Shown here: piece after piece, positions 12,107 through 59,853 of the stretch
How positions within the stretch are numbered: position 1 is the stretch's first letter
Layout: every line of letters starts with the position of its first letter
Assembly: GCA_964643795.1 (NCBI GenBank)
Contig: CAZXUC010000002.1
Location: 24,941 to 88,940, forward strand
Direction: 5' to 3'
DNA from: an uncultured Halobacteriales archaeon
GTDB lineage: Archaea > Thermoplasmatota > E2 > JACPAO01 > JAHFTW01
DNA length: 64,000 nt
Translations under genes and position numbers: made by a program
The notes under the pieces: model-generated
Told to the model about the DNA's origin: nothing
What the model saw: only the letters and a program-made list of their open reading frames with translations
Database searches by the model: none

Positions 12107-12124
12107 CTCTTTGGTCTTTCTACG

Positions 12125-19939: not shown

Positions 19940-19941
19940 GG

Positions 19942-21957: not shown

Positions 21958-22001
21958 AGACGGCCCACAGTCCATGCGGAACTTAAGCCGTGTTGTTACT
22001 T

Positions 22002-22010
22002 GATATAAGC
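22002..22010 (-). promoter_or_regulatory. TATA-like box upstream of the 21957 regulator gene
   Basis: The minus strand reads CTTATATCA about 45-50 nt upstream of ATG 21957, in an otherwise GC-rich spacer. Confidence 0.3.
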
Positions 22011-22150
22011 GCCCTGCGCATTCCTTGGTGTTCAAGCGGAATGTTTCGAGCATCGCCGCGCCCCGGCGTAGGCTTTGGTCCGGTCGCCCACCACGTTATT
22101 GTCTGAGCTGACCGAGCCGGGAATCAATCGCCCGACAATCCATCCTCAAT

Positions 22151-22654
22151 TCACTCCGCTTTGCGGTCCGCCAGCAACCGTCTCAGAAGCCCCGGCAGCA
22201 GGCCCACGAACGCGCCCACCAAGACGACGGCCATCACGCGTACCGCGAGTCCCGCCGGAGCCAGGGTGTCCTGCACGACCACGGATTGCCGGTTGGCAAG
22301 GAGTTGGGGCAGCCACGCCGAAGCAGCGACCGCGCCTGCAGCGACTGCCACGATGAGGGTCTGAAGAGGCACATCTACTCGCGGGGTCCGTTGCGGCGGC
22401 ACGTGGAGTGCTATGATGAAGGCCATCACTCCGCTTGCTGCCGCCGTGAGGGCTGCCGGGGTCGGTGAGGGGCCCGCCGCTGCCAGCAGGCTGACCAGCG
22501 CAGCACCCCAGGCGATGCCGTCGCTCCACGGTCGAAGCCTGCCGGCGCGCGCAATCGCGGCGGCTAGGAAGCTGACGGCGCCTGCTGCAAGGACTGGGGG
22601 GAGGGGCGCGGGGCTGGACCATGCGACAAGGGCAATGGCGAGGGCGTGCAACAA
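22151..22654 (-). CDS. Small polytopic membrane protein, last gene of the giant operon
   Basis: 167 aa, Ala/Leu/Val-rich, with 4-5 predicted helices. The TTG start lies 11 nt after the DUF58 stop. No recognisable motif. Confidence 0.5.
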   Translation of the reverse strand: MLHALAIALVAWSSPAPLPPVLAAGAVSFLAAAIARAGRLRPWSDGIAWGAALVSLLAAAGPSPTPAALTAAASGVMAFIIALHVPPQRTPRVDVPLQTLIVAVAAGAVAASAWLPQLLANRQSVVVQDTLAPAGLAVRVMAVVLVGAFVGLLPGLLRRLLADRKAE

Positions 22655-22665
22655 GAGATTGAAGA

Positions 22666-23907
22666 TCAGACCAGCACCCCCAATTCAGGGGCTGGCACCC
22701 AGGGCGGTTTCTCGTCCTGCCAGTCCAGCACGGCCGCACCGCGGTCGCGGACCTGTTGCAGCCACGCATCGCGTTGCCGGCGCCGCTCCGCGGAATCCGG
22801 GCCATCATACGTGGAGCCCAGTGGCCGCGGACTCACCAGGGTGACCGGGTGCCCCCGTCCGACCATGTCGGCGATGGCCGCGGGAAGCGTGGGGTCACCC
22901 TCGGCGGAGGTGAGGATGATGATGGGGCCGCGGGAGCGCATGTCGCGGCGGGCACGCTCCCAGGCTTCCATGAGGAGATTGGTCCCTTTTGCCGGCAACC
23001 GGGCCAGGACGTTCTCAAGTTGCCTGAGGCGGTCGGGGCCACGGGACGGGACCTCCTGGAAATCCTGCCCATATGCGAGGAACCGCGTAATGTCCCGGTT
23101 GCTGCTCGCTTCCGAGTACAAGGCCAGGATGAGGCGGCATGAACGGTCCAGGGGCGTGCTGCCCGCAGGGCCAACGCCGGACACCACTCGGGCATCCAGC
23201 AACAGCAGAATCTCGCTTTGGGTCTCGCGCTGACGTTGGTTGACGATCAGGCCATCATCGCGCTTGGCGCTGGCTTTCCAGTTGACGTCCCGAATGGTGT
23301 CACCGGACGCATACTGGCGCAGGGTGAAGAAGTCGAAGCCTTGGCCAGGCCGGTTGATCTGGAAGCGGCCTTGCATGGGCTTGAGGACGCGGCTGCGCAG
23401 CCCAACGTTGCCCTCCAAGATGCGAGGGATCACCTCCACCTCTTCGATGTGCAGCAACTGGTCGTCCATGGCCCAGATGCGGGATGGGCTCCAGGAGCGC
23501 ACCTCGACCGGGCCCACGCGTTGGGGGCCCCGGACGGCGGCCCGGAGCTTGAACGCATGCCGTGTGTCCCCTTTTTCAGGTGTCCACACGTTGCTCTCGT
23601 TCTGCGGCAGTGCCAGACCGCGGTCAAGGTGGACCCGGAACTGCTGGCCTCCCCGACCCGCGCGGGCTTCCACGGTGACGCTCGTTTCGGATTCTTCCGG
23701 GACCCGGGACGGGGTTACTTGCAGCCGCGGTTGCGGTGAATCCGCCGCCGCGACGCCGGCATCCAGGATCATCCACAACAGCAGGGCGCCTCCCAAGACG
23801 ACCCAGTACGGGGAATCCAGTAGGGGGCCAAGAAAGATCAACCCCAGCCCTAGGGCAGCGTAACCGGCCGCCTGGGCGGTCCATGTGAGTCGCCACCGCG
23901 TCGCCAT
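22666..23907 (-). CDS. DUF58-family protein (MoxR partner, vWA-like fold) with two N-terminal TM helices
   Basis: ATG 23907 is 1 nt after the MoxR stop. The hallmark is FFTLRQYASGDTIRDVNWKASAKRDDGLIVNQ (the REY..GD..R.I.WKASAR type). The N-terminus is AAGYAALGLGLIFLGPLL...WVVLGGALLLWMIL. Confidence 0.8.
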   Translation of the reverse strand: MATRWRLTWTAQAAGYAALGLGLIFLGPLLDSPYWVVLGGALLLWMILDAGVAAADSPQPRLQVTPSRVPEESETSVTVEARAGRGGQQFRVHLDRGLALPQNESNVWTPEKGDTRHAFKLRAAVRGPQRVGPVEVRSWSPSRIWAMDDQLLHIEEVEVIPRILEGNVGLRSRVLKPMQGRFQINRPGQGFDFFTLRQYASGDTIRDVNWKASAKRDDGLIVNQRQRETQSEILLLLDARVVSGVGPAGSTPLDRSCRLILALYSEASSNRDITRFLAYGQDFQEVPSRGPDRLRQLENVLARLPAKGTNLLMEAWERARRDMRSRGPIIILTSAEGDPTLPAAIADMVGRGHPVTLVSPRPLGSTYDGPDSAERRRQRDAWLQQVRDRGAAVLDWQDEKPPWVPAPELGVLV

Positions 23908-23908
23908 G

Positions 23909-24952
23909 CTACACCGGCGTTGCCGTGCGAGGCACAGGGATCCGGCGGGTGATGTCTTGCAGCACTTCTTGTTGGGTGCGTCCCCGGACGCGGGCGTCCG
24001 TGGCGAGGATGGTGCGGTGCGCCAATACGGGGACCACGAGTTCCCGCACATCGTCGGGGATGACGTAGTTGCGGCCCTGCAACGTCGCCCACGACCGCGC
24101 CATCTTGACAAGCATCAACGACCCGCGGGGGCTGGAGCCGGCCACAAGGTCCGGGTGTTTGCAGGTGGCGTCCACGATGCGCGCGATGTAGTCGACGATG
24201 CCTGCATCCACATGGATCGACTCCACGAACGCCTGCATTTCCAGCAACTGCTGCCGCGTGATCACCGACTTGACATCAAACGAGTCGCGGCCTCGGCCCA
24301 GGCGCCGGTTCATGATCTCCACAGCCTCGTCCTTGGTCGGGTATCCCATGCTGAGTCGCATGGCGAACCGGTCCATCTGCGCTTCTGGCAATGGATACGT
24401 GCCTTCCTGCTCGACGGGGTTCTGCGTCGCCAGGACCATGAAGGGGGGCTCCAAGGCATGGGTGACGCCTTCCACGCTGACCTGTTTTTCTGCCATGGCT
24501 TCCAGCAGGGCGGATTGGGTCTTGGGACTGGCTCGGTTGATTTCGTCGGCCAACAGGAAGTTCGTGAAGAGGGGACCCCGCCGGAAATCGAACTCGTTCG
24601 ATTGGCGGTTGAAGATGTGGCCACCACTGATGTCCGTGGGCAACAGATCGGGTGTGAACTGGATGCGGGTGAACTTGCACCCGGCCGCCTTGGAGTACGT
24701 TGCTGCCAACACCGACTTGGCCAGGCCCGGCATGTCCTCAAAGAGGATGTGGGCCCCTTCCGTGAGGCTGGCGGCCACCAGGTACTCGATGACGTTGCGT
24801 TTGCCGACGATCACTTTGGCCGTCTCGGTGCGCAGGGTCTGAATCGCGTTCCGCATCTGATTTGCGGACATGGAATTGCGGTTCGTGGGTGCTTGGCGGA
24901 CGACCATGGATTGTGCCGGGCGCCCGAGGGCTTGCTTGCTTTCAGTTGTCAT
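23909..24952 (-). CDS. MoxR-family AAA+ ATPase
   Basis: GAHILFEDMPGLAKS (Walker A variant typical of MoxR), FTPDLLPTDISG, LLADEINRASPKTQSALLEAMAEKQVSVEG (Walker B/sensor), VLATQNPVEQEGTYPLPEAQMDRF, and GSSPRGSLML in the lid domain. The start could alternatively be ATG 24871. Confidence 0.92.
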   Translation of the reverse strand: MTTESKQALGRPAQSMVVRQAPTNRNSMSANQMRNAIQTLRTETAKVIVGKRNVIEYLVAASLTEGAHILFEDMPGLAKSVLAATYSKAAGCKFTRIQFTPDLLPTDISGGHIFNRQSNEFDFRRGPLFTNFLLADEINRASPKTQSALLEAMAEKQVSVEGVTHALEPPFMVLATQNPVEQEGTYPLPEAQMDRFAMRLSMGYPTKDEAVEIMNRRLGRGRDSFDVKSVITRQQLLEMQAFVESIHVDAGIVDYIARIVDATCKHPDLVAGSSPRGSLMLVKMARSWATLQGRNYVIPDDVRELVVPVLAHRTILATDARVRGRTQQEVLQDITRRIPVPRTATPV

Positions 24953-25015
24953 GACAAAATCACCTGCTCCTTTCCTGGAGAACCTGAATCAATCGGGACC
25001 CGCCGGGCGTGCACG

Positions 25016-26041
25016 TCATGGAATCCGGCTCCGGTTGCTCGTGGGGTTGTTGTTGCTCTGGGCGATGACGTGGGCTGCTTCGGCCTCGAGTTCCGGGTCC
25101 TCCGCGGGCTTCCACTCGTGGGGGGCCCAACGGGTCGTGCGGGGTGCGGTAGACACCGCCAGAGCTGCTGCAACCAACATGAGGGCGACGGCGGCCAAGT
25201 CATTCGTGGTCAGGCCCCCGAGGGCGCGGTAGAGTGGGACCGCCAGGTGGCCGAGCCCACTGCGTGCCCCCGCCGTTGAATCAAGGTAGATTGTATCCGC
25301 ACCCTGGGCGAGCCCGGCGGCGAACTCCAGGTGCCCTTGGCGTTCGGTGACGACTCCGTTGCGCCACAAGTCGCCGTCGGCGATTACCCATACCGTTCCC
25401 TGCCCAAGCTGCCAGGCCGCCACCACGGGATAGTGGCCTGGCCCTTGGTCAGCGAGGCTCAATTCCTGGTCCCCGTCCAGGTCCAGGAAGACCTCGTGGC
25501 CGGACTTGGCCACCTGTTGGAAAACCGCCTCGGCGACGAGTGCGTCTTCCAGGTCGGGCATGGCACTGGGGGACGGCAGGCAGAGGGCGTGGGCAAGAAG
25601 GAGTTGGACCACGGTCTCGACGCAGTCCCGTTCGGCGCCCGGTGCGAGGAGGACCGGTTGGCCGTGGAACATGGCGCCGAGTCCCGATGCCCAGGAATTG
25701 GCGTGGCCTCCGTCCGTGGCGACCACCACGGTCCCGCCCGCTGCGACGAAGTCCTCCAGGCGCTCGGCCTCGGACACGGCAGCGGCGCGGTGCGTCGGAA
25801 ACAGGAACAAGACATCCCCGGCGCCCGCCGCAGCGGGGATGGAACCAATGGATCCAACGACCACGCGAAGGGCGGCTTGTGACGACAGGCGCTCGACAAG
25901 AAGGGTGTGCCCATCCGGTCCCGGGTCGTCCCAACCGACGCCGGACCCACCGAATCCACCGGGCCCCACAAGGGAGCCGCCCAGCACGGCCACCGATGCC
26001 AACAGGACCACGGCAGCTCCGGTCATGGCGAACCCCTTCAT
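25016..26041 (-). CDS. DUF4350-like membrane-anchored protein
   Basis: N-terminal TM (MTGAAVVLLASVAVLGGSLV), a ~270-aa alpha/beta-looking domain, and a C-terminal TM (LAAVALMLVAAALAV). The position between a DUF4129-like tail and MoxR matches the recurrent DUF4129-DUF4350-MoxR-DUF58 gene order, as I recall it. ATG overlaps the upstream stop (ATGA). Confidence 0.6.
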   Translation of the reverse strand: MKGFAMTGAAVVLLASVAVLGGSLVGPGGFGGSGVGWDDPGPDGHTLLVERLSSQAALRVVVGSIGSIPAAAGAGDVLFLFPTHRAAAVSEAERLEDFVAAGGTVVVATDGGHANSWASGLGAMFHGQPVLLAPGAERDCVETVVQLLLAHALCLPSPSAMPDLEDALVAEAVFQQVAKSGHEVFLDLDGDQELSLADQGPGHYPVVAAWQLGQGTVWVIADGDLWRNGVVTERQGHLEFAAGLAQGADTIYLDSTAGARSGLGHLAVPLYRALGGLTTNDLAAVALMLVAAALAVSTAPRTTRWAPHEWKPAEDPELEAEAAHVIAQSNNNPTSNRSRIP

Positions 26042-29000
26042 GCGGCGCCACCCCGCAGTGACCGCTCAGGGGTCCCGAGGTCCCGCGCCAACTGGAGGAA
26101 GGCGCGCAGGGCCTCACGGCGCCCCGCCTCGGGGATCTCTTGCTTCGAGTAGACCACGAGCTCGAAGAGTTTGGAGACCTCGCGCATCGGCTGGGGCTTC
26201 ACCTGGAAGGCCCGGATGGTGCTGTCGGCGATGTCGCGGACCGTCTGCTCGGGAGGGGGCGTGTACCCGGAGGAGTCCAGGATGGCCAGCAGTTGCTGGT
26301 AGGCGCGCCGGACCACTTCGGCGGGGGTCAGCGAGGGGTCCCACAGCGCCTTGTGCGCGTCGGCGAAGGCCCGCTGAAGTCTCCGGCGACCGCTTGCCCG
26401 CCACAATAGGTACAATCCGGCGGCCACCAAGGCCAAGGTCCCAGCGACTGCTGCGGCGACGGGGAGAATCCACGAGGGCGTGTTGGTTGTACGGACCTCT
26501 TGGAGGGATGTCTCCAGGGTGTACACGGTCTCGGTGGCTTCCAGTGTCGGGCTGCGCAGGGCCACCACGCTCAACTCGCCGTCGTATCTGTTGCCTAGAT
26601 CCAGCTCGGCTTCACCGGTCTGGGGGTCCAGGTCGATGCGGTGGATGTCCAGCACGCGTTGCGTGGCCGGGTCGCGGCGCAGCAGCACCAGTTCCCCTTC
26701 CATCTGCCCGCCCTCCGAATCGGCACCGATTACCTTGACGCGCACCTTCCGGCCATCCTCCCCAAGGGTCTCGTGCACTTGCACGTCCACCCCCTTGACG
26801 ATGACCAGCGTTCCCTGCCAGGACGAAATCTGGTAGCCGTCGGTTCCGTTCGCCGACAGGGAGACGTTCTGCTCGCCAAGGGCGGTCCCCTGGGGAATCG
26901 GGTACTCGATGCGGAAGTTGGCTGGGTCGTGGATTGTTACGGGGTGTGGCGGCTGGCCGGGGATGCGCACCTCGAACAGCACCGGTCCGTACTCCAAATC
27001 TGGGACTGCGCCCTCAAGTCGGCCCTCCAAGAGGACTGCCTCACCTTGCCGCACGCGCTCCGACAGGCGGTCAACCTGCACCTGGATGCGGTGGGTGACG
27101 GTGAGGTTGGTGGAATTCTGGGCGGGGGCCTCGTTGGCTGTGCCGTGGTAGGAAGCGGCCAGCAGGAGATTGGCGGGCCTCCGGACGGGTAGGTCGTTGG
27201 CGGTCCATGACACGGCCCCATCCGCCCCCGTAGACCATTCCACCGAGAATTGGCTAATCGGCGGGCACAGGCCACTTGCAGGGTTGGTGCAGTCGAGGGG
27301 GAACGCAACCGCCTCCAGATGCAGGATGCGGCCCGGGAGCTTCTCGCCGCGCTCGTCGGCCAGGACGGCTTGTGCAACCGTCTTGTTGGCGTCCCCCGGC
27401 GCGAGCATTTCATCGTCGGCGTCGAGGGAGAGTCTGGTCGGCAAGTGGATGGCCACTCGGGCAGTCGCAGCCGATGGGTCGAACAAGTCCGTGCCGTTGA
27501 ATCGGACGCGCAGGTCTGCGCCTCCGAGTGCGGTTCGTGGTGGCAGGCGGGCCTCGAACCGTCCATCGTCGTTCGACTTGACGATGGACGACTCGCCGTC
27601 GTCCCAGCCGATTTCCAGGTCCAATGCCGCGAGGGGTCGGTCCAACCCGTCGAGGAGCCGACCCGACACGGGGACGTCGTGGCTGCGCAGCGCCGGGGGG
27701 GCTTCCACCTGGATGCGGGTGGAGATGTGGTGGGCGGCGTCTGCTTGGATGGGGGCGGAGGGGGCATACAATGTGGTCCCGCCGAAGCTGACGGTCCAAT
27801 TGCGCAGGAAGGGTTCGTCACTGCTGACCGGGATGCGGACGTTGCCTTGGGCGTCTGTTCCGGTGTGGGTCAGGGTCTTGCCGTCCTGGCTGGTCAGGAG
27901 GAAGGGGGCGTCGGACAGGGAGACCGGTCCCTGGGAAGCCGTGAGTCGCCCCTCAAGGAAACCGACTTGGCCGACGGGAACGCGGACCCCGCCGAGTTCG
28001 AAGGTGGTGGGGTACCGCGGTTCGATGGTGAACGTGGTCTCACGGTGACTGCTTTGGCCCTCCGGGACCTCGCGCAGCCGGATGTGGTGGAGGGTGGGAT
28101 CGTCGGAGATTCCGATTGCTGCCACCTGCACGTTGAGGCGTCCCGTGTTGTCCGTGGTGGCGGCGCCGGTCCAGACGGGGGTCGCCTCCAAGCCGCGCAA
28201 GAGATGGACCTGCACGGGCCGGCCGGGCACAGAAATCCCCTTGTGGTCGTCCGTGAGGGTTGCAGTGACAGTGAATGCGACTCCCGGTTGGACCTGGGGG
28301 CGCGTCCCGGCCAGGGGTTTGCCGTCCAGGGCGACCTCCGCCCAATGGGTTTCGCGGGCGATGGGGACAATTGCTGTGGCGTTTGCGGGGGCCAGGAATT
28401 GGTCACTGTCCAGGAGTTTGCCTTCAATCTGGATCTCCAAGTCCCCGACGGGGAACAGGAGCGGATTCAACGTGAAGGAGAAGGTGCCGTCGCTGCTGAC
28501 CTGCAATGGATCCATGGACACTCCGGGCACCGTGACGTGCACGGGGCGTCCGCCAAGACCGACTCCCTCCACGTCCACGAAGCGCCCGCCGATGGCCAGT
28601 GAATCCAGGCCTTGCACGACTCTGCCTGGCACGTTGTCCAGGATGACTTGCGTCGTGGCGGCCAGTCCCGTGCTGACGGGCGCAGAGGTGTTGCTGAAGA
28701 TTGCGCGGGTGGCGTGGGTGACGCCACGGTTGGCATCGGGCACAAGCTTGTCATCGACTTCATGGTACACGAGCGCCCGCAGGGTGCGGCCGTCAGGCAG
28801 AGGATATGGATTTCCTTGGGAGACCGGCTTGTACGCACGAACCGGTTCCGGACCCCCAAACGACAGGTCCTGCAGGGCTGGGTCGTTGGGGTCCACGATG
28901 GCGCGAATCTGGATGGGGCCGGGTTGCAGCCCGAGGCCGTTGGGTCCCCCGCCGATGCGGGTCGCAAGGACCGGTTGATCGCCCGCCTCCCAGACCTGGC

Positions 29001-53000: not shown

Positions 53001-56000
53001 CGGCCACGCCGGCCGAGAACTCCCAGGTCGCCTGGGCGGTTGCACCAGCGTTTCCAGGCGTGGGGGCCCACAATGAGATTGGGGGCGCGGCGAAGCCCCC
53101 GTTGGGGTGGCCGCCGGGGGTGGGGGTGGTGGGGGTGAACGCATATTGGACGAGGGGTGGAGTGCGTGCCGCGAGGGGCTCGTGGGAAGTGAACAGGAAG
53201 GTCAGCTCGCCTGCCGCCGGGTCCGGCAATCCGGAGACTTCGAGGCTGGGGGGCCGCGCCAGGTCCGCCTGCACCATCTCCATGCTCCAGCCGCCAGGGC
53301 TGTTGGTGGCACGGGCGTACACGAACAGTTGCAAGCAGCCGGCCGGGTGCAGGGGCCCGTCGTCGAGGACTTCGTCCAAATCCAATGTGAGGGTCGCCTG
53401 CTGCCCCGCCGCAAGCATCCCGGAATCCACCCAGGTCGGGGGGGAGATTGGCTCCGCCAGACACTCGGACCCATCCCGCATTGTGGTGGTGGCGAAGACC
53501 ACGTACGTCACGTCCTGCAGAACCTCTTCGTTGCTGAGGGTGGCCTGCCAGTCGCCTCCAACCAACTGCCCGCTGGTTGCAGTGAGCTCGATGGAGGGGC
53601 CAAGCGATGCCGGAACCTCCTGCGGGGACCCGCAAAGGGCATCATCGTCGCACGCGGCGTCCTGATCATCGGGTCCAATCCAGATCGCCTGGGGGGTCTG
53701 CACTCCCTCGGGGCCTCCGGCCGAAGGCGGCGCGGAGCCGTGGGACTGCCCGCGTTCCCCCAACCGGAGTGCAGCGGGGCCACCGAGAACAAGGGCGGCG
53801 ATGGCGTCCTCGCTGTAGGCTTGGGAGTTGTCCGACGCCAACAGCAGACCCGCGCCGTCCCGATCGACAAGCATTCCGCGGCCGCTTCCCTGGGCGGCGC
53901 CTTGCAACCACCCGTTGCCATGGTAGGTGGCCGCACCGTCCAGGCGCAGGTGGAGGCCGAGGGAGGGGCCGAAGCGGGGGCCGGTATCGATGAATGCGCC
54001 AAGGGCGGAAATGTTGGGCATGCAGGGACGGGTTCCTGTTCCACCGTCCTCGTGGAGGCAGGGTTCTTGACTGATGTCGCGCAGGGGGTCGAACCCTGCC
54101 CCATTGCCCTCATTGCCCCGTTCCAGACCTGCCAGGCACCACGGGTAGGGCGGGTCAGCCCCACTTTCCGTGTCCATCCAGGCGATGAGCTGGCCCCGGT
54201 GCTCATCCACGGAGGGGCAATCCGCCGTGCGCGGCGCGTATTCCATCGATTCCAACCGCTCATGCGCTCCGTACCCCTGAGCTTGGTTGCCGGCGTGGAA
54301 CATGTCCGTGCCGCCGCTCGTGATGTGGAGGCCCACCGCGTCGATGGCGGCCCCCTGAACAAGGTCGGGGGCCCCGCCGGCCAGCGGGGCCCGTTTGGGG
54401 CTCAGCGAGTCGGGGCGCTCAAGCCACGCGTCCCGGGCGTCTGGCAAGCCGGACACGATGTCCGGGTGGGTGCTGGCGACGGGGTTGTAGCGGTCGTCGC
54501 CCCCGAGGTCCACGAGGACGCCGACGCCGAGCCGGGTGGCTGCGCCCTGGGCGTGGCCCGGGGCCACGTACAGGTCGTCGCCGGTGAGGTCCATGAGGAC
54601 TGCGGCGGTGCCGAAGTCTCCGTAGCCCTGCGTCCTCTGATTGAGGGAGAGGTAGTCGTCGTCGCCTAGGAAATCAACGACGATGGAGGGTCGCCCCGAG
54701 GGGCTGGGGCCCGCGATGGCGCCCGTGTACCTGTCGTTCCCGGCCGCGTCCACGATGCCCAGATAGGGACTGCCACTGTACCAAGTGCGCACGCCGAGGG
54801 GGTCAAGGGCGAGCCAGAGCACTGGTTCGTCCTCGGAGCGCAGGTCGAAGGCGCGTTCCACGCTGATGTCCGCCACATGGAAGGGGTCCGTTGGGAGGTT
54901 GCTGATGCCTTCGACGGTGGCGTTGATTTGGTACTCCCCCGGGTTGAGCCAAATATGGCTCTTCTCCCATTGCAGGGGCCAACCGCCGGAGACGTCATTG
55001 CAGGTGAAGGAACCGTCGTCCCAGTCGACGCACAAGCTGGCTGTCTCCCCCGCCGGGACCATCAAGGGTTCGTAGAGCCCCGCATTGTTCAGTCGCTGCA
55101 CGGCAACGGTGAACGGGTACTCTTCGCCGGCAGCAGCCAGGCTGGCGTGGCGGACCTGGCCGCGGGGATTGATGGTCGCCGTCATGATGAATGGGGGGAG
55201 GTCCAAGTCCCCGTCAATTGCGTCCGGGTCGGGTTGGATGTCCACCGTGAACGTGGTCGCGTTGAAGCCGCCGAACCGGTCCAGGACGCGGTACTCCACT
55301 TCCCGTTGTGCGGCGAAATCCCACTGCCCAATGGCGCCGGGCCCGAGGGCCCGGACGTGGTGGAAGACGACGTGGTCTGTGCGGATGGGCGGTTCTTCTT
55401 CTTCGTCCAGGTCGGGGCGCGGGTCGAAGCCGTGCGGGAGCACCTGGCGCACCACCAGGCCCCGCACATCCGGGAAGTCCGGCAGATTGACGACCAAGAT
55501 ATCGGGGTCGTTGGCGCTGGTGCTGGCGACTTGGAGTGTCCCGACGGGTTCCAGTGCGCCGCCCGGGCGCAGCATGGAGAGTTCGAACTGGGTCGTCGCG
55601 GCCCCCGTGGGGCGGTGAGCCGCCACCTCCAACTGGCGGACCTGCCGGGGTCCAGCGAAGTCCACGACCACCTGGATGGGGTCGTGAAGGAACTGGGACG
55701 TGTAGTGGAGGGCGAGGTGGGTCGCCGGTTCGCCGTCCAACAGGTTGCCCGGTTCGTGGAGCAGTTCCTTCTGGACGCCGCCGAGGCTGGAACCGATGGA
55801 AAGGGGCAGGGACGCGCGGCCACCGGAGGAGAGTGCTGCCCAGTCCACGGCGGTGGCGTTCCACGCGCGCAGGTCGTCGGGGGACCCGAACAGGATGACT
55901 GGGTCCAGGAGATCGTCGGCTGGTTCAAAAGGGACCTGGAAGGCGGCTGGTTGGCCCACCATGGGCGCCAGGTTCCCCCGGAGGTCACCGATGCGCGGGG

Positions 56001-59000
56001 GTTCGTTGTGGACGGTGACGTTGCCAGCGTGGCGGGTCTGGAGCAGTCCGCCCGGATCGTGGGCTTCCAGGGTGACGGGGAAGTCAAGTGAGGTCTGTCC
56101 GAGGGTGCCGTCCACCGGCACGTTGTCCCATGCAATCGTTGCGTGTTGTGTGACGTTGTCCGGGTCCGGATGCAGCCATCCCGTGCAGGAGAGCGGTGCA
56201 GCCGTTTCGATTGAGAAGCAGAGCCGCAGGGGATCGCCGTCGGGGTCCCGGGCGGAGAAGGACAGTTCGGCGGGCACTCCTGCCGGCACGGCCTCGGGCA
56301 AGGCCCAGTCAAGGACCTCGGGGGCCTGGTTGTCGCTGGGGTTGACGCGTAGGCCCGTCCCGTCCCCTGGACCGGTCCCGTTCGGCGCGGCGTTGTGCTC
56401 TCCCGCCGCGACGAACACGCCCACGCCCCCGTCAAAGCCCGTCCCGTGTGCCGGGGGGCCATCGACGAGGAACACGTTGCGGTCCGCGGCGGGGGGCGGG
56501 CTGCGCAGGGCGACGAGGGCTCCAAGTCCGCCCGCGAATCCCACGCCTTGGGCACTGTGCGGTGCCACGAAGAGGTCGTTGCCGCCGAGGTCGAAGAGGA
56601 GTCCCGTGCCAGTGTTGCCGAAGCCCTGGTTGAACGGCAGGTCGGAGACGTACGAATCGTCGCCGCGCACGTCCAAGTGGAAGGAGAGGAGGGGAATTCC
56701 GCCGGGGGCGGTGCTGTTGGCGGCACCGGCCAGGCCCTCGTGCAGGTCGTCGCCGCCCAAATCAAAGTGCAGAGCGGCGCGGTAGCCGGGACCGAAGTGG
56801 TCCTGCCCCCCGACCGTCAATAGCAGACCGTGCGGCGCGTCCAGGTACAAGTCGGCGCCCTCGAGGTCCAGCAGGACCCGGGGGGCCACCGGCAGGGGGG
56901 ATACGCCCGGGTCGTTCGGGTCCGCGCCCCACAGGCCCACGAACTGCTGCCACAGGGACTCCACGAGGTCCGGGACCATGTCACCGTCCCGGTCGGCCTC
57001 CAGATCCACGCCGGTCAGGGTGTTTGCCTGCTCCTGCCGCCACACCGCATCGTTGCGGGGCACGGGGCCATCATCCAGGCTGGTCTGCACATTACCGGGG
57101 CCCAGGTCGGGGGAGGGACCGGCCAAGTCCATGGACGGCGCCTGGTGGGGATTGTCGGGGTCGGCGGGGGTGTAGGTGTCCTGGCCGCCGATGTCGGCGA
57201 AGAACCCGAAGGAGACGCCGTGACCCTCCAGGAGGCCGTTGTACTGGTCGTTGCTGCTGCCCTGGCTGCTGGAGGGCTCCACGGACACCTGGACGCCCAC
57301 TCCCACCTCGAGGAGAGTGGCATTCACCAGGCCGTCGAGGAAGATGGCCGTGGGGTCGATTGGTTGTTGGATGCTAACGACGGGTGGGCCACCGTAGCCG
57401 CGGGACATCTCCCCGGCCGTGTAAGTGTCGTCACTGGGGCTGCCGGGGCCTGCCGCGTCGGCAAAGAAGGCAAGCGGACGCTGATGTTTTCCCGTAGAAG
57501 CCCGGTTGTCCTGTGTGCTCCCCTGGCTTTCTGCTCCTGCGGTGTACGCATCGTGGCTGACGGCGTCGCGCCCGGCCACGTTGACGAAGAACGCGACGCC
57601 CGCGGTGCCATGGCGCGGGCCAGGCCCCACATCTGCGCCAGCAGCGGCTTGGCTCGAGTCGCCCGATGTGAAGGAAGAGATGGCTTCGGAGCCTGAGCCC
57701 ACGAGGCGGACCAGGGCCGCGGAACCGTGCCGGATGGGTGAGCCCCCTTCAACGCCGTCGGGCGCAGGCCCCGGCAGGGTGGATGCCTGGCTGCGGTCTC
57801 CGGCATGGTACGTGGAATCGAGGATTCCGGAGCCGATTCTTTCCACCAGCACCGCCACGCCCCGGCGCAGGGCTTGGTCCGGGTCGCCCACCCCGTTGGT
57901 GTCGCTTAGGCCTTGGACCAGTACCAAACGGGTGTCCGGTCCCGCGTACGCCTGCGACTGGTCACCGGCCATGAACCGGTTGGTGGCCGTGGCATCGTCG
58001 CCCTGCCAATCCACCAGGACCGCGACGGGGGCGCGGCTGGCGACTCCCGTGGTGTCCGCAGCGCCGACGTCGTCGCGGTCCGGGCAGGCGGCGGCGTGGG
58101 CGCACGACTTGTCCTCGGCGTCGTAGGTGTCGCTTCCGTCCAGGTCGAAGAGGAGGCTGACCGGAGCGGCGGCGGTGTGGTCCGGGTTGTTGGCGTTGGG
58201 TCCTACCTGTGCCGGGAAGGGGGCGCTGGCGTGGCGGCCGATGTACTGGTCGTCGCCGCCAACGTCGATGAGCAGCATGGCGGCCTCTTCCTCTGTCCAC
58301 ACCGGATTGTGGCCGCACAGGTCGAGGGCAAGGTACCCCAGAACGCGGAGCTTTGCGGGGACGCCCTCTGGGCACTCAACTGCGGTGGTGGATTGGGTGG
58401 AGGACTGCTGGGGCGCGAACGCTTCGGGGATTGCCTCCGCGGCGGCCAAGAGCTCCTCCAGCGCTTTGGCGGCGCCGGCAAGGGCCTGTAGGTGTTCCTG
58501 TGACGAGACGAGGAGTTGGCCATCCGGGGAGGCCGGGGAGGGCAGGTCCCCGTCGTCGAGGGCCTCGGCCCAACGCGCCAATGCGTCCGCGGTGAAACCC
58601 TGCGGCGCGGGAGTGGACAGAACTTGTTGTTCGGCGCGGATGTAGCGGGCGACGGAATCCAGGACGCGAGCAGCTGCTTCCGCTTGCGGCGGCGTCAGCC
58701 ATGCCTGGATCCGCTTGGCCTCCGTGGCGGCGTAGGCTGCATCCCCTTCCATGGCACGGGCTAGGTCCGCCACCGCGTCAGGCAAGGATGGGGCAGGGCG
58801 TGCTGGGGGTTGGACGCCTAGGTCGGGCAAGGCGAGCCGGAGGGGGGGCCTTTCGGCGTCCGGGTCCGGCAGGCGGGGCAGGGGGGTCTGCTCAGCGCGC
58901 CAGGCGAGGCGGGCGTCGGCGGCCGCACCCCAAACCTCCAGGGTGGGGCTTGCGGCGTCGATGGCGTGGCCGAGTTGGACCAAGTGGTCCGAGTCCCCCG

Positions 59001-59853
59001 TCGGGCCCAGCGTGAAGGGCAGCAGGGCCTGGAGAATCACGTCCAACGCGGCAAGGCCCGCGTCGGGGGCGCCGGCGAGGCCGGCTGCGAGATCGAGGCG
59101 CTCAGCATCCGTGAGAAGGGCGAGGACCTGGACGCGTCCCGCCACGGCCAACGGCGTGGTGGGCCTGAGGCGGAGGGGGTCGCCGGCCTCGACGCCGAGG
59201 AAGTCGGCCAGCACGTCAGCCACGCGCAGGCGCTCGTCCAAGGCCTGGTGGCCGGCCACCAGGCCTTCCACCAGGAATCCGGTCTCCACGAGGATGCCGG
59301 CGGCCTGCAGGATGTGTGGTTGGTCGAGGCGCGCCAACACGGGGGCCAGGCGCTTCTCGGTCTTCGCGTCCAGGTCGTTGCCTTGGGCCTGCGCGTCGCG
59401 CAGGATGCCAAGTTGGTCTGAGGTGAGGTAGCGGGTGGCCATCTCCTGGTGCCAGTAGGCGCGGGCGAGACCCTCCAGCATAGCGCGCGCCACCTCCTCG
59501 TAGACGGGAGGCAGTTGGGGCAACCGGTCAAGGTCCTGGCGCAGGGATTCGGCGCCGGGCGACCCCGGGGAAGCTCCGGCTAGAAGCATCGACAGTTCCA
59601 GCATGGACAATTCATCCACGCGCCCCTCCACCCACGCGTCGGGGGCCCAGGTGGGGGGATGGGGCAGCCGGTCGTGGGCGGGGGATTCTCCGGGCCGGCT
59701 TGGCGTGCTCTCCGGGCCAGCGGGAGGCACAAGGAAGCCGGGAAGCTGCGGCATCGCCGCCGCAGGCAGCAGCACCGCAATGACCACCAGGAGGGCGACC
59801 GCCGAGGGTCGGCCGAATCTGGCCGTCCGAATGGGACGCTCCTTGCGAATCAT
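50011..59853 (-). CDS. Giant (3280 aa) secreted protein: N-terminal anchor, ~550-aa Ala/Leu-rich helical region, beta-solenoid-like GxDxY repeat region, Ig-like array, C-terminal TM+Arg anchor
   Basis: I preferred ATG 59853 (MIRKERPIRTARFGRPSAVALLVVIAVLLPAAA). Repeats include IDVGGDDQYIG, FDLGGNDLFVAPHSAQGVGFAGG, MDLTGDDLYVAPGHAQGAATRLG and VDLGGDDRYNP. Ig-like modules follow. The tail is GIPGVPTLVVLAAIAIAFLTRRMRP. Confidence 0.85.
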   Translation of the reverse strand: MIRKERPIRTARFGRPSAVALLVVIAVLLPAAAMPQLPGFLVPPAGPESTPSRPGESPAHDRLPHPPTWAPDAWVEGRVDELSMLELSMLLAGASPGSPGAESLRQDLDRLPQLPPVYEEVARAMLEGLARAYWHQEMATRYLTSDQLGILRDAQAQGNDLDAKTEKRLAPVLARLDQPHILQAAGILVETGFLVEGLVAGHQALDERLRVADVLADFLGVEAGDPLRLRPTTPLAVAGRVQVLALLTDAERLDLAAGLAGAPDAGLAALDVILQALLPFTLGPTGDSDHLVQLGHAIDAASPTLEVWGAAADARLAWRAEQTPLPRLPDPDAERPPLRLALPDLGVQPPARPAPSLPDAVADLARAMEGDAAYAATEAKRIQAWLTPPQAEAAARVLDSVARYIRAEQQVLSTPAPQGFTADALARWAEALDDGDLPSPASPDGQLLVSSQEHLQALAGAAKALEELLAAAEAIPEAFAPQQSSTQSTTAVECPEGVPAKLRVLGYLALDLCGHNPVWTEEEAAMLLIDVGGDDQYIGRHASAPFPAQVGPNANNPDHTAAAPVSLLFDLDGSDTYDAEDKSCAHAAACPDRDDVGAADTTGVASRAPVAVLVDWQGDDATATNRFMAGDQSQAYAGPDTRLVLVQGLSDTNGVGDPDQALRRGVAVLVERIGSGILDSTYHAGDRSQASTLPGPAPDGVEGGSPIRHGSAALVRLVGSGSEAISSFTSGDSSQAAAGADVGPGPRHGTAGVAFFVNVAGRDAVSHDAYTAGAESQGSTQDNRASTGKHQRPLAFFADAAGPGSPSDDTYTAGEMSRGYGGPPVVSIQQPIDPTAIFLDGLVNATLLEVGVGVQVSVEPSSSQGSSNDQYNGLLEGHGVSFGFFADIGGQDTYTPADPDNPHQAPSMDLAGPSPDLGPGNVQTSLDDGPVPRNDAVWRQEQANTLTGVDLEADRDGDMVPDLVESLWQQFVGLWGADPNDPGVSPLPVAPRVLLDLEGADLYLDAPHGLLLTVGGQDHFGPGYRAALHFDLGGDDLHEGLAGAANSTAPGGIPLLSFHLDVRGDDSYVSDLPFNQGFGNTGTGLLFDLGGNDLFVAPHSAQGVGFAGGLGALVALRSPPPAADRNVFLVDGPPAHGTGFDGGVGVFVAAGEHNAAPNGTGPGDGTGLRVNPSDNQAPEVLDWALPEAVPAGVPAELSFSARDPDGDPLRLCFSIETAAPLSCTGWLHPDPDNVTQHATIAWDNVPVDGTLGQTSLDFPVTLEAHDPGGLLQTRHAGNVTVHNEPPRIGDLRGNLAPMVGQPAAFQVPFEPADDLLDPVILFGSPDDLRAWNATAVDWAALSSGGRASLPLSIGSSLGGVQKELLHEPGNLLDGEPATHLALHYTSQFLHDPIQVVVDFAGPRQVRQLEVAAHRPTGAATTQFELSMLRPGGALEPVGTLQVASTSANDPDILVVNLPDFPDVRGLVVRQVLPHGFDPRPDLDEEEEPPIRTDHVVFHHVRALGPGAIGQWDFAAQREVEYRVLDRFGGFNATTFTVDIQPDPDAIDGDLDLPPFIMTATINPRGQVRHASLAAAGEEYPFTVAVQRLNNAGLYEPLMVPAGETASLCVDWDDGSFTCNDVSGGWPLQWEKSHIWLNPGEYQINATVEGISNLPTDPFHVADISVERAFDLRSEDEPVLWLALDPLGVRTWYSGSPYLGIVDAAGNDRYTGAIAGPSPSGRPSIVVDFLGDDDYLSLNQRTQGYGDFGTAAVLMDLTGDDLYVAPGHAQGAATRLGVGVLVDLGGDDRYNPVASTHPDIVSGLPDARDAWLERPDSLSPKRAPLAGGAPDLVQGAAIDAVGLHITSGGTDMFHAGNQAQGYGAHERLESMEYAPRTADCPSVDEHRGQLIAWMDTESGADPPYPWCLAGLERGNEGNGAGFDPLRDISQEPCLHEDGGTGTRPCMPNISALGAFIDTGPRFGPSLGLHLRLDGAATYHGNGWLQGAAQGSGRGMLVDRDGAGLLLASDNSQAYSEDAIAALVLGGPAALRLGERGQSHGSAPPSAGGPEGVQTPQAIWIGPDDQDAACDDDALCGSPQEVPASLGPSIELTATSGQLVGGDWQATLSNEEVLQDVTYVVFATTTMRDGSECLAEPISPPTWVDSGMLAAGQQATLTLDLDEVLDDGPLHPAGCLQLFVYARATNSPGGWSMEMVQADLARPPSLEVSGLPDPAAGELTFLFTSHEPLAARTPPLVQYAFTPTTPTPGGHPNGGFAAPPISLWAPTPGNAGATAQATWEFSAGVAGAHTLWARTQWPDGPVGEWQELAQTDVVVLENNVGLSSIKGVVALSGGMYVPANSLLPAAGTVISPAGVEDVQLRLRDGQGGEVKLVRDGSQHAILSAQVAEPGARLTEWKLDVRPEATFSGILHVQGRVGWLDGGTAAWSDWQELATVHVDGEAPRVTDVSGVLGAATNQDSFPIAITMDLDDSLQNPSECPTQCPGAGIDVETLSVRLRAPNDVAPLNLVAWGAGPDGLETHWVWDATAAPPEGEYFVEVFARDYVGNQLATYPGARFVVDRQAPVFLQATVQLPDGQQAIKPGDEVLVSAAVTDVGAAGVHQVTAAFEDSDSVPLTGTNDEYEGTLTAPASTANTVVVRLEALDAAGNAAGDAREIPFHPHPPVVEPGIQVRAQSITVHVESSRDVELQGVLQGDGDPVPGVVQGGPQTHVVTFLDLVQDTEYLLILEVVDAAGWVVTREESVRTLPLLESSLGGLAVPTHAVSGPVAVHAIADCPAAVPATVTLLVSGGVALPAMHKALEPCEGPVPFTLELDTRSLPDGPADLVLTLDDGSRVLELPFSLQIDNTRPLLQTHIEGPAARNGWHNGTVVVRATAEDATNPVTLAVRHGDQSASQPGDRVTLSSDGVHEVAFTARDGATPSNEEARDLLVRVDRTPPAVDAAVATEPAATRDDSVPLLVTAQDPASGVESYRMRVAEGPWSPWLADAPTEAMVPSGAPEGQHWIDVEVRDLAGNVATATLSMVLDRTPPEVLGMRWAGAPTEGDPVLHLVAVDRLNGSGNPVGVDAVRFASPHTPDSWSPWATTGGIGTFAIPTAHTNGTHTLVQLRDRVGNLAAPVASPAIPRPEDAPAAAVTDGAEGAAPQGLVVRDPDVQPRQGRSTDPFAFSAVVYGEPSAVWLEVNGQRHAATPDGPRLGDLGRLYVATVTLSPTPFEDPYTYRFVVELGDAIVTTKTLPGPTVLAVGLAGHDDAMLERGGDRGIPGVPTLVVLAAIAIAFLTRRMRP

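Follow-up and report, generated by a model that had tools for sequence, protein, structure and literature searches.

An uncultured archaeon, whose nearest relatives are Thermoplasmatota, carries a cassette of eight genes (~38 kb) in which four giant surface-protein genes (G1-G4) run into genes for DUF4350, MoxR and DUF58 proteins and a small membrane protein (G5-G8, Table 1), all on the minus strand between positions 22151 and 59853 of the 64,000-nt stretch of DNA analysed here (the window). What is new here is the conserved order of G2, G3 and G4, followed by DUF4350-MoxR-DUF58 and a small protein with four transmembrane (TM) helices, in distant relatives. There is, in our estimation, close to an even chance that this conserved cell-surface cassette provides a membrane platform on which MoxR would assemble or remodel a giant ectoprotein complex.

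Gene layout and conservation of the cassette

The preliminary description of this DNA listed eight consecutive minus-strand genes with no gap longer than 63 nt, four 4-nt overlaps and a single base between the MoxR and DUF58 genes, all of which is borne out by the ORF list and by direct reading of the junctions. Stop and start overlap as ATGA at G1/G2, G3/G4 and G4/G5 and as GTGA at G2/G3. The G5/G6 gap is the one of 63 nt, with the SD-like GGAGCAGGTGAT preceding the G6 ATG; one base lies between the MoxR TAG and the G7 ATG; and the G7/G8 gap is 11 nt, provided that G8 starts at TTG 22654. This start is not certain; on the Logan copy the gene was called at 91 aa, and the long form is supported by homologues of 146-193 aa, which overlap the DUF58 stop. 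The G1 frame is open to 59979 and its start was taken at the ATG at 59853, before which GGGTGGGTG stands. With stops expected at ~0.02 per codon at ~68% GC, a 4310-codon open frame would occur by chance, by our own arithmetic, at about e^-90. Furthermore, the GC3 of the giants (0.83-0.86) equals that of UvrB and MMPL, indicating that the frames are real and their codon usage native.

Table 1. Features of the cassette and of the gene downstream (positions in the window; sizes of G1-G8 from the ORF list)
Feature	Positions	Strand	Size (aa)	Description
G1, ectoprotein	50011..59853	-	3280	ORF list; ATG at 59853 gives a typical signal sequence; N-terminal signal, A/L-rich helical region, two solenoid-like repeat clusters, Big_13 Ig-like region, PxP-helix-RRMRP tail
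G1 repeat cluster 1	56527..58278	-		Residues 526-1109; 7 'hhhDhxGxDxY' units
G1 repeat cluster 2	54448..54756	-		Residues 1700-1802; 4 consecutive units of ~27 aa each
G1 sorting-signal-like tail	50014..50088	-		GIPGVPTLVVLAAIAIAFLTRRMRP; JDVT-CTERM only below threshold
G2, ectoprotein	37082..50014	-	4310	Signal peptide, CARDB-like strand signatures, C-terminal PxP-helix-RRRSP tail
G2 tail	37085..37165	-		LPIPATGATAWLALAFAAILLARRRSP; MYXO-, GlyGly- and GVDTG-CTERM only below threshold
G3, ectoprotein	33213..37085	-	1290	Signal peptide, NEW3 + Ig_VWA7 + CARDB beta-sandwiches, PTP-helix-RRRWRP tail
G3 tail	33216..33296	-		AVPTPAVLPALLAFLASAAIVRRRWRP; PTPA-CTERM 14.5 bits (cutoff 29)
G4, ectoprotein	26038..33216	-	2392	N-terminal anchor, TSP3-rich Ca-binding-type N-half, Ig-like stalk, TM helix, DUF4129 tail
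G4 C-terminal TM helix	26413..26469	-		Residues 2250-2268; hydropathy score 2.2
DUF4129 of G4, predicted cytoplasmic	26101..26304	-		Residues 2305-2372; PF13559 41.5 bits (cutoff 24.8)
G5, DUF4350	25016..26041	-	341	Signal peptide, GIFT/GATase1-like ectodomain, C-terminal TM helix, 40-aa tail
G6, MoxR AAA+ ATPase, cytoplasmic	23909..24952	-	347	Walker A PGLAKS and Walker B LLADEINR both intact
G7, DUF58	22666..23907	-	413	N-terminal TM hairpin + vWA-like domain; PF01882 30.5 bits (cutoff 23.4)
G8, small 4-TM membrane protein	22151..22654	-	167	No known family; TM scan
Membrane-anchored ArsR-like regulator	20683..22053	-		Two wHTH domains; directly downstream; Pfam, NCBIfam, TM helices

Of 11 distinct related loci, 9 have a G4 homologue (2214-2616 aa, with a DUF4129 tail) followed by DUF4350-MoxR-DUF58, and the linkage of giants and module first noted in this window is thus evolutionarily conserved and not a one-off. 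The module follows G4 directly in L002, L003, L004, L006, L009, L012 and L013, and an S8-peptidase giant, joined by overlapping junctions, stands between the two in L010 and L011. Upstream, a G3 homologue is present in 8 of the 9 loci that reach that far and a G2 homologue in 5 of 5, with identities of 25-49% outside MoxR and a locus GC of 0.59-0.78. G1 would be a member by virtue of a single 4-nt overlap seen here, related contigs reaching G2 at most. The module had also been called hard-wired to the giants, which overstates the linkage: L007 and L008 hold G2-G3-G4 and another giant without the module within 6.6-7.4 kb on the available contigs.

Such cassettes, together with the S8 peptidase/PKD giants that freely enter and leave the locus, could mean that the module serves a general envelope or membrane-homeostasis function, presumably the one it has in actinobacteria, and shares an operon or regulation with surface genes that are not its direct clients, all the more as it occurs without giants in Mycobacterium and beside a small DUF4129 protein in Streptomyces. 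We consider this unlikely, given that DUF4129, a standard neighbourhood component of the module, is built into the G4 chain itself in all family members seen, and that giants and module are joined by 4-nt overlaps in most loci at 25-45% identity and over a wide GC range.

The giant ectoproteins and their tails

The four giants, whose genes are translationally coupled, are acidic ectoproteins that each begin with an export signal and carry a membrane helix at the C-terminus, and the signal anchors previously ascribed to them were found again as a basic start followed by a hydrophobic segment, of Sec type, in each. BLAST between the giants revealed no similarity, and most of G1 and G2 remained unmatched by Pfam families and PDB sequences. 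The preliminary description, which saw them built from TSP3-like repeats, CARDB/NEW3-like sandwiches and solenoid-like repeats, holds in part: TSP3 is found only in G4, NEW3/CARDB is solid only in G3 and solenoid-like repeats occur only in G1.

G1 has 11 'hhhDhxGxDxY' units, and an iterated HMM built from the units themselves gives domain E-values of 1e-7 to 1e-10 in cluster 1 and finds none in G2-G4; judged by their sequence, these units would fit a solenoid. Big_13 scores 33.7 bits (cutoff 27) on the last 410 residues of G1 alone and 23.3 bits on the whole protein, and G1 gave no match to PDB sequences. G2 has one weak match to CARDB, at 32.5 bits, with no single stretch above the cutoff. 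The homologues of G2 (3749-4052 aa; L007, L008, L011, L012 and L013) are collinear with it at 27-31% identity. By eye, 'h.h.h.N.G' strand signatures, left uncounted, recur in this protein. G3 scores 63.6 bits for NPCBM_assoc/NEW3, 29.4 for Ig_VWA7 and 23.5 for CARDB, and in 8 loci a homologue of it (29-35% identity) is encoded upstream of the one of G4.

G1, G2, G3 and the accessory-giant families share a PxP-helix-RRR tail. By this tripartite end (a short motif with Pro, a hydrophobic helix and clustered Arg residues at the very C-terminus), and by being common to several otherwise unrelated surface proteins of one locus, the tails are like the PGF-, PEP-, MYXO- and PTPA-CTERM sorting domains. 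They differ from the CTERM domains of exosortases, archaeosortases and rhombosortases in scoring below all curated thresholds, and the window shows no sortase gene. The module might recognise these tails for sortase-like processing or anchoring: the tripartite end is conserved across the families, it weakly resembles PTPA-, MYXO-, GlyGly- and JDVT-CTERM, exosortase/archaeosortase families have no match among the larger ORFs of the window (Pfam, NCBIfam, TM scan), and DUF4350 has a GATase1-like fold, a superfamily that includes cysteine hydrolases. Such a machine is nevertheless decidedly improbable, as no curated sorting-domain model matches the tails above threshold, G8 has no cysteine, DUF4350 yielded no recognisable catalytic triad, a sortase could lie outside the window elsewhere in the genome, and the tails may do no more than anchor the proteins permanently in the membrane.

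G4 forms a family of ~20 distinct members of 2134-2616 aa, conserved in length and matching at the C-terminus, with 31% invariant positions in the N-half vs 13% in the C-half. It scores 39.5 bits for TSP3_bac (Pfam) and has 10-12 TSP3-type motifs, which are absent from G1-G3. The stretch WRASGRRRLQR after its TM helix places, by the positive-inside rule, the G4 tail in the cytoplasm. This basic tail (20 K+R vs 14 D+E; AF2 model uninformative at pLDDT 53) is homologous to that of P0031, a 325-aa DUF4129-type membrane protein, suggesting that G4 arose when a standard component of the module acquired a giant ectodomain. G4 alone among the giants thus appears to have a cytoplasmic domain, and this DUF4129 would be the sole plausible physical handle for the module.

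G4 also matches MtsD and the model of the gliding lipoprotein CglD (87.9 bits over 5 TSP3 stretches) and DUF4350 the GIFT fold, from which one may picture a CglD-like Ca-dependent adhesin with a GldG-like partner, the ATPase driving adhesin cycling or movement. However, the CglD score is far under its cutoff (400) and comes solely from TSP3 repeats that the two have in common, the cassette is devoid of motor, ABC transporter or track component, and we know of no gliding in archaea, all of which makes a role in adhesion or surface motility highly improbable.

The DUF4350-MoxR-DUF58 module and a possible membrane platform

The family calls first made from the sequence alone (DUF4129, DUF4350, MoxR and DUF58) were confirmed by Pfam scores above cutoff. 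G5 scores 51.7 bits for DUF4350 and has its TM helix at 282-300 and an acidic ectodomain (10 K+R vs 30 D+E); its AF2 model (pLDDT 70 overall, 80-94 in the core) matches IFT52-N, the GH42 trimerisation domain and ThuA in Foldseek (E ~2e-4), and G5 presents an exposed GldG/IFT52-like domain on a one-helix anchor. G6 matches AAA_3 (204.5 bits, 6e-61), AAA_lid_2 (77.6 bits, 6e-22) and PDB 2R44 (7e-74), is 65-75% identical to its relatives, and has no TM helix or signal in the TM scan. A weak Pfam match to bpMoxR (23.7 bits), also listed for the homologues in L002, L009, L010 and L011, would be compatible with a MoxR-vWA conflict or defence system merely beside surface genes. This reading is disfavoured and barely conceivable, the score lying under the cutoff of 27, with no beta-propeller or effector gene and nothing found by PADLOC on G5-G8.

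The MIDAS position of G7 is an invariant D-A-R in an alignment of 6 family members, and this degeneracy makes canonical metal-mediated vWA binding unlikely. Its soluble part is near-neutral (51 K+R vs 46 D+E), like cytoplasmic G6 and unlike the acidic ectodomains; from the hairpin and this charge balance only, we infer that it is cytoplasmic. Archaeal vWA partners are probably secreted in the view of Makarova et al. (PMC5898192). The motifs R[LF]RPWSD, W[LV]P and DPLTxxG..R of G8 are kept in homologues after DUF58 in L002, L004, L006, L009 and L010. In L008, L009 and L010, too, wHTH proteins are encoded behind the cassette, with a fusion to a G8-like domain in the last, and the ArsR-like gene is probably a cassette-associated regulator.

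If MoxR assembles or remodels a giant complex at the membrane, G1-G3 would be exported by Sec and then held or processed there via their common tails, with G4 as a hub, since it alone of the giants has a predicted cytoplasmic domain and since it adjoins the module in most loci (not L010 and L011). The TM helix and DUF4129 tail of G4, the DUF58 hairpin, G8 and the DUF4350 anchor would form one platform. The adaptor logic of MoxR-vWA pairs is established for RavA-ViaA, CbbQ-CbbO and NorQ-NorD; by analogy, DUF58 may recruit the MoxR hexamer, and ATP hydrolysis on the cytoplasmic side could power assembly, quality control or conformational switching of the complex of G4 with G1-G3. The module would then act on proteins already translocated, maturing or remodelling them, and would not serve in transport.

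Export of the giants across the membrane by DUF4350, DUF58, G8 and MoxR is what the 2015 model of a dedicated secretion system, proposed for arCOG01314 neighbourhoods, would imply (PMC5898192). DUF4350 is GldG-like, GldG being part of a gliding/T9SS-associated ABC transporter, its match to a GIFT-domain fold was obtained here, and the very large would-be substrates are conserved neighbours. We nonetheless find dedicated secretion rather unlikely: the N-terminal signals of all four giants are of the ordinary Sec type and TM helices number only 4 in G8, 2 in DUF58 and 1 in DUF4350, so that no dedicated channel or polytopic candidate for one is evident; L007 and L008 have giants without the module; and we know of no MoxR ATPase acting as a translocase.

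Relation to known systems

We take PA2875 of P. aeruginosa to be a MoxR protein, PA2874 a DUF58 protein and TgpA to end in DUF4129 after its last TM helix. Their three genes are transcribed together, and TgpA exposes its transglutaminase domain to the periplasm (PMC3507681); as in the cassette, the functional domain of a membrane protein is exposed outside the cytoplasm. The operon differs in that this domain is a transglutaminase, of which Pfam detected no core in any cassette protein, and in having neither DUF4350 nor giants. The Bifidobacterium PFNA cluster (pkb2-fn3-MoxR-DUF58-tgm) likewise groups a surface FN3 adhesin gene with MoxR and DUF58 (PMC8430577, PMC6803598). It differs in being bacterial, with a single adhesin of moderate size, a kinase and a transglutaminase, and without DUF4350 or a DUF4129-tailed giant.

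DUF4129 is presumably encoded within the M. tuberculosis cluster Rv3689-Rv3695. With M. chelonae MAB_0386c-0392c, this represents the actinobacterial DUF4129-DUF4350-MoxR-DUF58 cluster, in which the same families share the same neighbourhood, and of which the cassette is an archaeal counterpart. Mycobacteria change the expression of their DUF4350/MoxR/DUF58 genes in concert (PMC8191103), and in Streptomyces a 324-aa DUF4129 protein is encoded near a DUF58 gene (PMC12093942). The actinobacterial cluster differs by its small DUF4129 protein (~320 aa) and the absence of giant ectoproteins, the latter indicating that giants are not required for the module to work; no equivalent of its SpoIIM-like and RDD partners turned up here.

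The client relationship of module and surface proteins, initially thought undescribed, had in kind been predicted by Makarova, Galperin and Koonin in 2015, who saw a secretion or membrane-remodelling complex in archaeal DUF4350 (arCOG01314), MoxR and vWA proteins with Ig-like/S-layer-like surface proteins, a prediction never tested experimentally, and who scored arCOG01314 absent from Thermoplasmata (PMC5898192). Their partners are S-layer-like proteins of the DUF1616/COG4743 type with 2-4 TM helices, unlike the conserved set of 1,300-4,300 aa found here, and DUF4129, borne here by one partner, is unmentioned. Both systems are archaeal and combine a DUF4350 protein, anchored in the membrane and exposing a GldG/flavodoxin-like domain, with a neighbouring COG0714/MoxR ATPase, a vWA-type protein (here DUF58) and membrane-anchored Ig-like surface proteins in the same predicted operon. 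The cassette is thus, in kind, a giant-protein variant of the arCOG01314-MoxR-vWA system.

Organization of the cassette and its surroundings

Eight open reading frames succeed one another on the minus strand between positions 22151 and 59853, four of which encode giant proteins (G1 to G4), followed by a module made of a DUF4350 protein (G5), a MoxR ATPase (G6) and a DUF58 protein (G7), and by a small protein (G8). Direct reading of the junctions confirmed the operon observation of the preliminary description as a whole, with 4-nt overlaps at G1/G2 (ATGA), G2/G3 (GTGA), G3/G4 (ATGA) and G4/G5 (ATGA) and a single base between the MoxR stop and the DUF58 start; the gap between G7 and G8 is 11 bases long. 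The 63-nt gap at the G5/G6 junction carries an SD-like GGAGCAGGTGAT, and no TATA-like box was clearly visible in it on inspection by eye, which is weak evidence. For G1, a GTG located 42 codons upstream is a possible alternative start but would leave the protein without a signal sequence.

At 68% GC, one stop per ~50 codons is expected by chance, so that giant frames open over 1,300–4,300 codons are not fortuitous. Because of this length, and because their third-position GC (0.83–0.86) is that of the UvrB and MMPL genes of the same window, the giants are considered native genes. A recent horizontal transfer of the cassette is likewise unsupported, GC at third positions being equal to that of housekeeping genes.

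Coordinates of the cassette genes, of neighboring features in the window and of S8 peptidase/PKD/NosD giants in related loci
Feature	Location	Strand	Remarks
G1	50011-59853	-	3280 aa counted from ATG
G2	37082-50014	-	4310 aa
G3	33213-37085	-	1290 aa
G4	26038-33216	-	2392 aa
G5 (DUF4350)	25016-26041	-	341 aa
G6 (MoxR)	23909-24952	-	347 aa
G7 (DUF58)	22666-23907	-	413 aa
G8	22151-22654	-	167 aa, TTG start
Direct repeat, 156 nt	60420-60575 and 62551-62706
ORFs between the repeats (2.1 kb)	61318-62310 and 60597-61448	-	no family match
Membrane-anchored ArsR-like regulators	20683-22053 and 62491-63918	-	two wHTH each; bracket the cassette
92-nt 'tRNA-???' and neighboring tRNA-His	19774-19865 and 19940-20015	-	ARAGORN; Rfam confirms tRNA-His only
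Envelope-related genes	4717-14698		downstream of the cassette
Two FtsX-like permeases, ABC ATPase	within 4717-14698	+
Two GT4 glycosyltransferases, MMPL/RND-type transporter	within 4717-14698	-
289-aa ORF	3385-4254	-	six predicted TM helices; no Pfam/NCBIfam match; overlaps a plus-strand ORF
S8 giant, L010	7967-14152
S8 giant, L011	17278-24003
S8 giant, L002	14017-20331

The two ArsR-like regulators are paralogous (37% identical in their last 134 aa), and in three related loci (L008, L009 and L010) the cassette is likewise followed by wHTH genes. The 3′ part of the regulator gene at 62491-63918 is duplicated by the 156-nt direct repeat, whose copies are 94% identical and 2131 bp apart; this region, just upstream of G1, has the appearance of an insertion accompanied by duplication of its target.

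Conservation of the cassette in related loci

With the C-terminal 500 residues of G4 as query, a full HMMER scan retrieved ~20 proteins that are distinct at the <50% identity level and measure 2134–2616 aa, each matched C-terminally, and G4 therefore belongs to a length-conserved family. The contigs of its members provided 11 distinct related loci (GC 0.59–0.78), to which the window proteins were compared by tblastn. G4 homologs are present in all 11, with 30–38% identity and at full length where the contig allows. A G3 homolog (29–35% identity) lies directly upstream in eight of the nine loci that extend in this direction, preceded by a G2 homolog (27–31%) in all five that reach far enough; complete G2 homologs measure 3749–4052 aa and are collinear over up to 2085 residues. 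None of the 11 loci as retrieved extends upstream of G2, although the contigs behind L008 and L011 continue beyond it by 9.9 and 17 kb, and the conservation counts cover the genes from G2 onward.

Downstream of G4, homologs of DUF4350 (39–45% identity), MoxR (65–75%) and DUF58 (46–49%) are found in nine of the 11 loci. In the window, DUF4129 (the C-terminal tail of G4), DUF4350, MoxR and DUF58 are co-directional, adjacent and in this order, which is kept in L002, L009, L012 and L013 among others. Nearly all junctions of the related loci are 4-nt overlaps, the 63-nt gap of the window being the family maximum, and a G8 homolog with conserved motifs comes after DUF58 in L002, L004, L006 and L009. 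The linkage of giants and module noted in the preliminary description is thus real and conserved, and we consider it very probable that a genuine cassette ties G2-G3-G4 to the module.

The DUF4129-tailed G4 adjoins the module in most loci, except in L010 and L011, where an S8 peptidase/PKD/NosD giant intervenes with overlapping junctions on either side. These S8 giants (2061–2241 aa), one of which comes after G8 in L002, bear a C-terminal tail of the same kind as G1 to G3; they are facultative members of the cassette and are absent from the window. Two further loci, L007 and L008, combine G2-G3-G4 with a PKD/fn3 giant (1802–1894 aa), and the module is absent from the remaining 6.6–7.4 kb of contig. 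L008 is Logan contig 3448 of SRR6868923, the sample that also yielded the Logan copy of the window, and may represent either a paralogous cassette or a relative present alongside.

Five relatives of G5 were found in an index of 5.8 billion proteins, and a contig scan of genomes with a DUF4350 alignment returned two loci, both from Thermoplasmatota MAGs. Metagenome contig scans queried with G2 and with a three-sequence G4 alignment gave no match, a word-indexed search with G3 returned G3 alone, its homologs being detected solely by tblastn on the fetched loci, and a search with the last 1200 aa of G2 returned nothing, G2 itself included. G2 is unrecorded in large protein and gene-position collections, in which G3 to G7 of the same contig are present. 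Giant genes appear to be under-represented in these collections, which limits homology searches, and since they seem to be missing there, G1 and G2 homologs are visible through G4-anchored loci only.

Features of the giant proteins and of the module

All family assignments of the module were borne out by Pfam: DUF4129 at residues 2305–2372 of G4 (41.5 bits), DUF4350 in G5 (PF14258, 51.7 bits), AAA_3 (6e-61) with AAA_lid_2 in G6 and DUF58 in G7 (30.5 bits, cutoff 23.4). The giants had been described as built from TSP3-like repeats, CARDB/NEW3-like domains and beta-solenoid-like repeats; the first two exist, TSP3 in G4 only and NEW3/CARDB in G3, but not as a plan common to all, and a single repeated building plan was rejected as BLASTP among the four giants showed no similarity. 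G4 matches TSP3_bac (PF18884, 39.5 bits) in three stretches and contains 10–12 DxDxDG-type motifs, confined to G4 among the giants. It shares these Ca-binding repeats with CglD and bacterial TSP3-repeat adhesins, but its score against the CglD model (87.9 bits, cutoff 400) does not reach the equivalog level. Over three full-length G4 homologs, invariant positions make up 31% of the TSP3-rich N-terminal half and 13% of the Ig-like membrane-proximal half, a difference suggestive of a conserved distal binding head carried by a variable stalk.

Pfam matches of G3 comprise NEW3, Ig_VWA7 and CARDB, and G2 gives a single marginal CARDB match together with recurring CARDB-like strand signatures noted by eye. 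In G1, a Big_13 match appears near the C-terminus when the last 410 residues are scanned alone, and a unit of the type hhhDhxGxDxY occurs 11 times in two clusters, with four units spaced by ~27 residues; these repeats may be solenoid- or RTX-like. Most of the length of G1 and G2 has no match in Pfam or PDB sequences, and PDB sequence searches with G1, G2, G4 and DUF58 yielded nothing useful. Sequon density in G1, G2 and G4 is barely above expectation.

A hydropathy scan retrieved, in all four giants, the hydrophobic N-terminal segment behind a basic start previously noted as a signal anchor, and located one helix at each C-terminal end. In G1, G2 and G3, the chain ends 5–7 residues past this helix (...GIPGVP-TLVVLAAIAIAFL-TRRMRP, ...LPIPATG-ATAWLALAFAAILLA-RRRSP and ...AVPTPA-VLPALLAFLASAAIV-RRRWRP, respectively). 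The pattern [aliphatic]-P-x-P-[G/A/S], helix and RRR tail is also found in most examined tails of G2 and G3 homologs, as well as in four of five additional giants from the related loci. Its tripartite motif-helix-basic shape is that of exosortase, archaeosortase and rhombosortase sorting domains; however, unlike recognized sorting domains, the G1–G3 tails match the curated models below threshold only (best scores and cutoffs: PTPA-CTERM, 14.5 versus 29; JDVT-CTERM, 15.8 versus 27; MYXO-CTERM, 14.4 versus 20; GlyGly-CTERM, likewise sub-threshold). Pfam, NCBIfam and TM scans of the larger ORFs detected no sortase gene within the 64-kb window. The PxP-helix-RRR tail is put forward as a candidate for a new C-terminal sorting signal.

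In G4, the helix (2250–2268) is followed by WRASGRRRLQR and then by a 124-residue basic helical tail bearing DUF4129, which the positive-inside rule predicts to be cytoplasmic. A single-sequence AF2 model of the TM helix and tail had a pLDDT of 53, too low for use in a fold search. This tail is homologous to that of P0031, a 325-aa DUF4129 membrane protein, which would fit an origin of G4 from a standard module component that gained a giant ectodomain.

G5 consists of a signal peptide, an acidic ectodomain (10 K+R versus 30 D+E), one helix and a 40-residue tail, with TM segments at 8–26 and 282–300. Its AF2 model (pLDDT 70, core 80–94) matches the folds of the IFT52 N-terminal (GIFT) domain, the GH42 trimerisation domain, ThuA and GATase1-like proteins, in agreement with the GldG-like assignment of the literature. 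G6, encoded 63 nt downstream of DUF4350 and devoid of membrane segment, has intact Walker A (PGLAKS) and Walker B (LLADEINR) sequences, and its nearest solved structure is a Cytophaga MoxR protein (PDB 2R44, 7e-74). A bpMoxR-vWA-beta-propeller conflict system was considered and discarded, the bpMoxR score lying below the cutoff (23.7 bits versus 27), with no propeller or effector gene found and PADLOC being negative for G5 to G8.

G7 begins with a two-helix hairpin, and its soluble part (51 K+R versus 46 D+E) has a cytoplasm-like charge balance, from which a cytoplasmic orientation is predicted. At the MIDAS position, G7 has D-A-R, invariant in six of the six aligned family members, instead of the canonical DxSxS, and the DUF58 signature GRFQVNRPGQGFDFF..R.Y..GD..R..NWKA is near-invariant in the family. 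G8 has four TM helices and no assigned family, and there are hints that it may couple the module to transcription control. At L010 17509-17970, a G8-like 4-TM domain overlapping the DUF58 stop is fused to a wHTH, in a gene of 417 aa by gene call that leaves the locus edge.

Possible function and comparison with known systems

For other MoxR ATPases, vWA partners play the part of adaptors, as in RavA-ViaA, CbbQ-CbbO and NorQ-NorD. By analogy with these pairs, DUF58 would be the adaptor recruiting the MoxR hexamer to the membrane, and the DUF4129 tail of G4 the element upon which MoxR-DUF58 acts. The G4 tail, DUF58, G8 and the DUF4350 anchor would form a transmembrane platform, by which cytoplasmic ATP hydrolysis would govern the G1–G4 ectoprotein complex outside, be it in its assembly, its quality control or its conformation. 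MoxR-driven maturation or remodelling of G1–G4 via DUF58 and the DUF4129 tail is thus our working proposal, tentative as it is. It is preferred over transport because the Sec-type signals of the giants are ordinary and the cassette includes no channel-like protein. Its weak points are the D-A-R MIDAS, the presumed orientation of DUF58, the two cassettes devoid of module and the fact that bacterial versions of the module function with no giants at hand. A bolder and, in our opinion, improbable version is an 'inside-out' ATP-powered controller, in which MoxR, via DUF58, would act on the DUF4129 tail of G4 to switch or assemble a Ca-dependent G1–G4 surface complex; we know of no such integrin-like transmembrane control logic in archaea. 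If true, the orphan DUF4129-DUF4350-MoxR-DUF58 module would have in G4 its first identifiable natural client, and a testable function would be offered for the related M. tuberculosis (Rv3689-95) and P. aeruginosa (essential TgpA operon) genes.

Many archaea possess the DUF4350-MoxR-DUF58(-DUF4129) module, as do actinobacteria such as M. tuberculosis, and the essential TgpA operon of P. aeruginosa contains a reduced version of it; we know of no substrate described for this module. Makarova, Galperin, and Koonin (2015) reported arCOG01314 (DUF4350) neighborhoods in which a MoxR/GvpN ATPase and a vWA protein are joined by membrane or secreted partners that are Ig-like and S-layer-like, proposed them to be a novel secretion or membrane-remodelling complex and scored arCOG01314 as absent from Thermoplasmata in their census (PMC5898192). 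The client relationship, which the preliminary description held to be undescribed, was therefore already predicted in 2015 (PMC5898192), and full-text literature searches on archaeal giant proteins and MoxR did not find a description of the present cassette. The earlier interpretation is partly supported overall: the linkage holds, the mechanism is a plausible hypothesis and the novelty was overstated.

The arCOG01314 system resembles the present cassette by its DUF4350 protein, which like G5 has a signal peptide, an exposed flavodoxin/GldG-like domain and a single C-terminal TM, and by the adjacent COG0714/MoxR ATPase, the counterpart of G6. The vWA partner of that system is of the arCOG02742/02747 type, with an Ig-like N-terminus followed by vWA; G7 has a DUF58 match and its D-A-R at the MIDAS. 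Partners of the arCOG02884 (DUF1616, pfam07760) kind belong to the arCOG01314 system, whereas PF07760 was unmatched in any protein scanned here and the Ig-like partners (NEW3, CARDB, Big_13) are new giant families, one of them with DUF4129, with a PxP C-terminal tail common to the giants.

In the mycobacterial Rv3689-Rv3695 cluster, expression of the DUF4350, MoxR and DUF58 genes shifts in concert (PMC8191103), and a small DUF4129 protein is encoded near DUF58 in Streptomyces (PMC12093942). DUF4129 of the actinobacterial type is a small (~300-aa) polytopic protein, whereas it corresponds here to the last ~125 aa of the 2392-aa G4. PA2875-PA2874-tgpA of P. aeruginosa are co-transcribed, the transglutaminase domain of the product facing the periplasm (PMC3507681), and an fn3-MoxR-DUF58-tgm cluster is described for Bifidobacterium (PMC8430577, PMC6803598). 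Unlike the TgpA operon, the present cassette is without transglutaminase, Transglut_core (PF01841) having no match in G4 or any other protein scanned.

With the cassette come several new families of very large envelope proteins of archaea, in a phylum whose envelopes are poorly understood; the organisms that carry it are uncultured. DUF4129 is here fused to a 2,250-residue ectodomain, and the fused gene is accompanied by two or three more giant surface proteins. This fusion and the co-travelling giants point to large membrane-anchored surface assemblies as what the module acts on, with the DUF4129 tail as a concrete handle, and G4 as a concrete client, for a widespread orphan AAA+ module.
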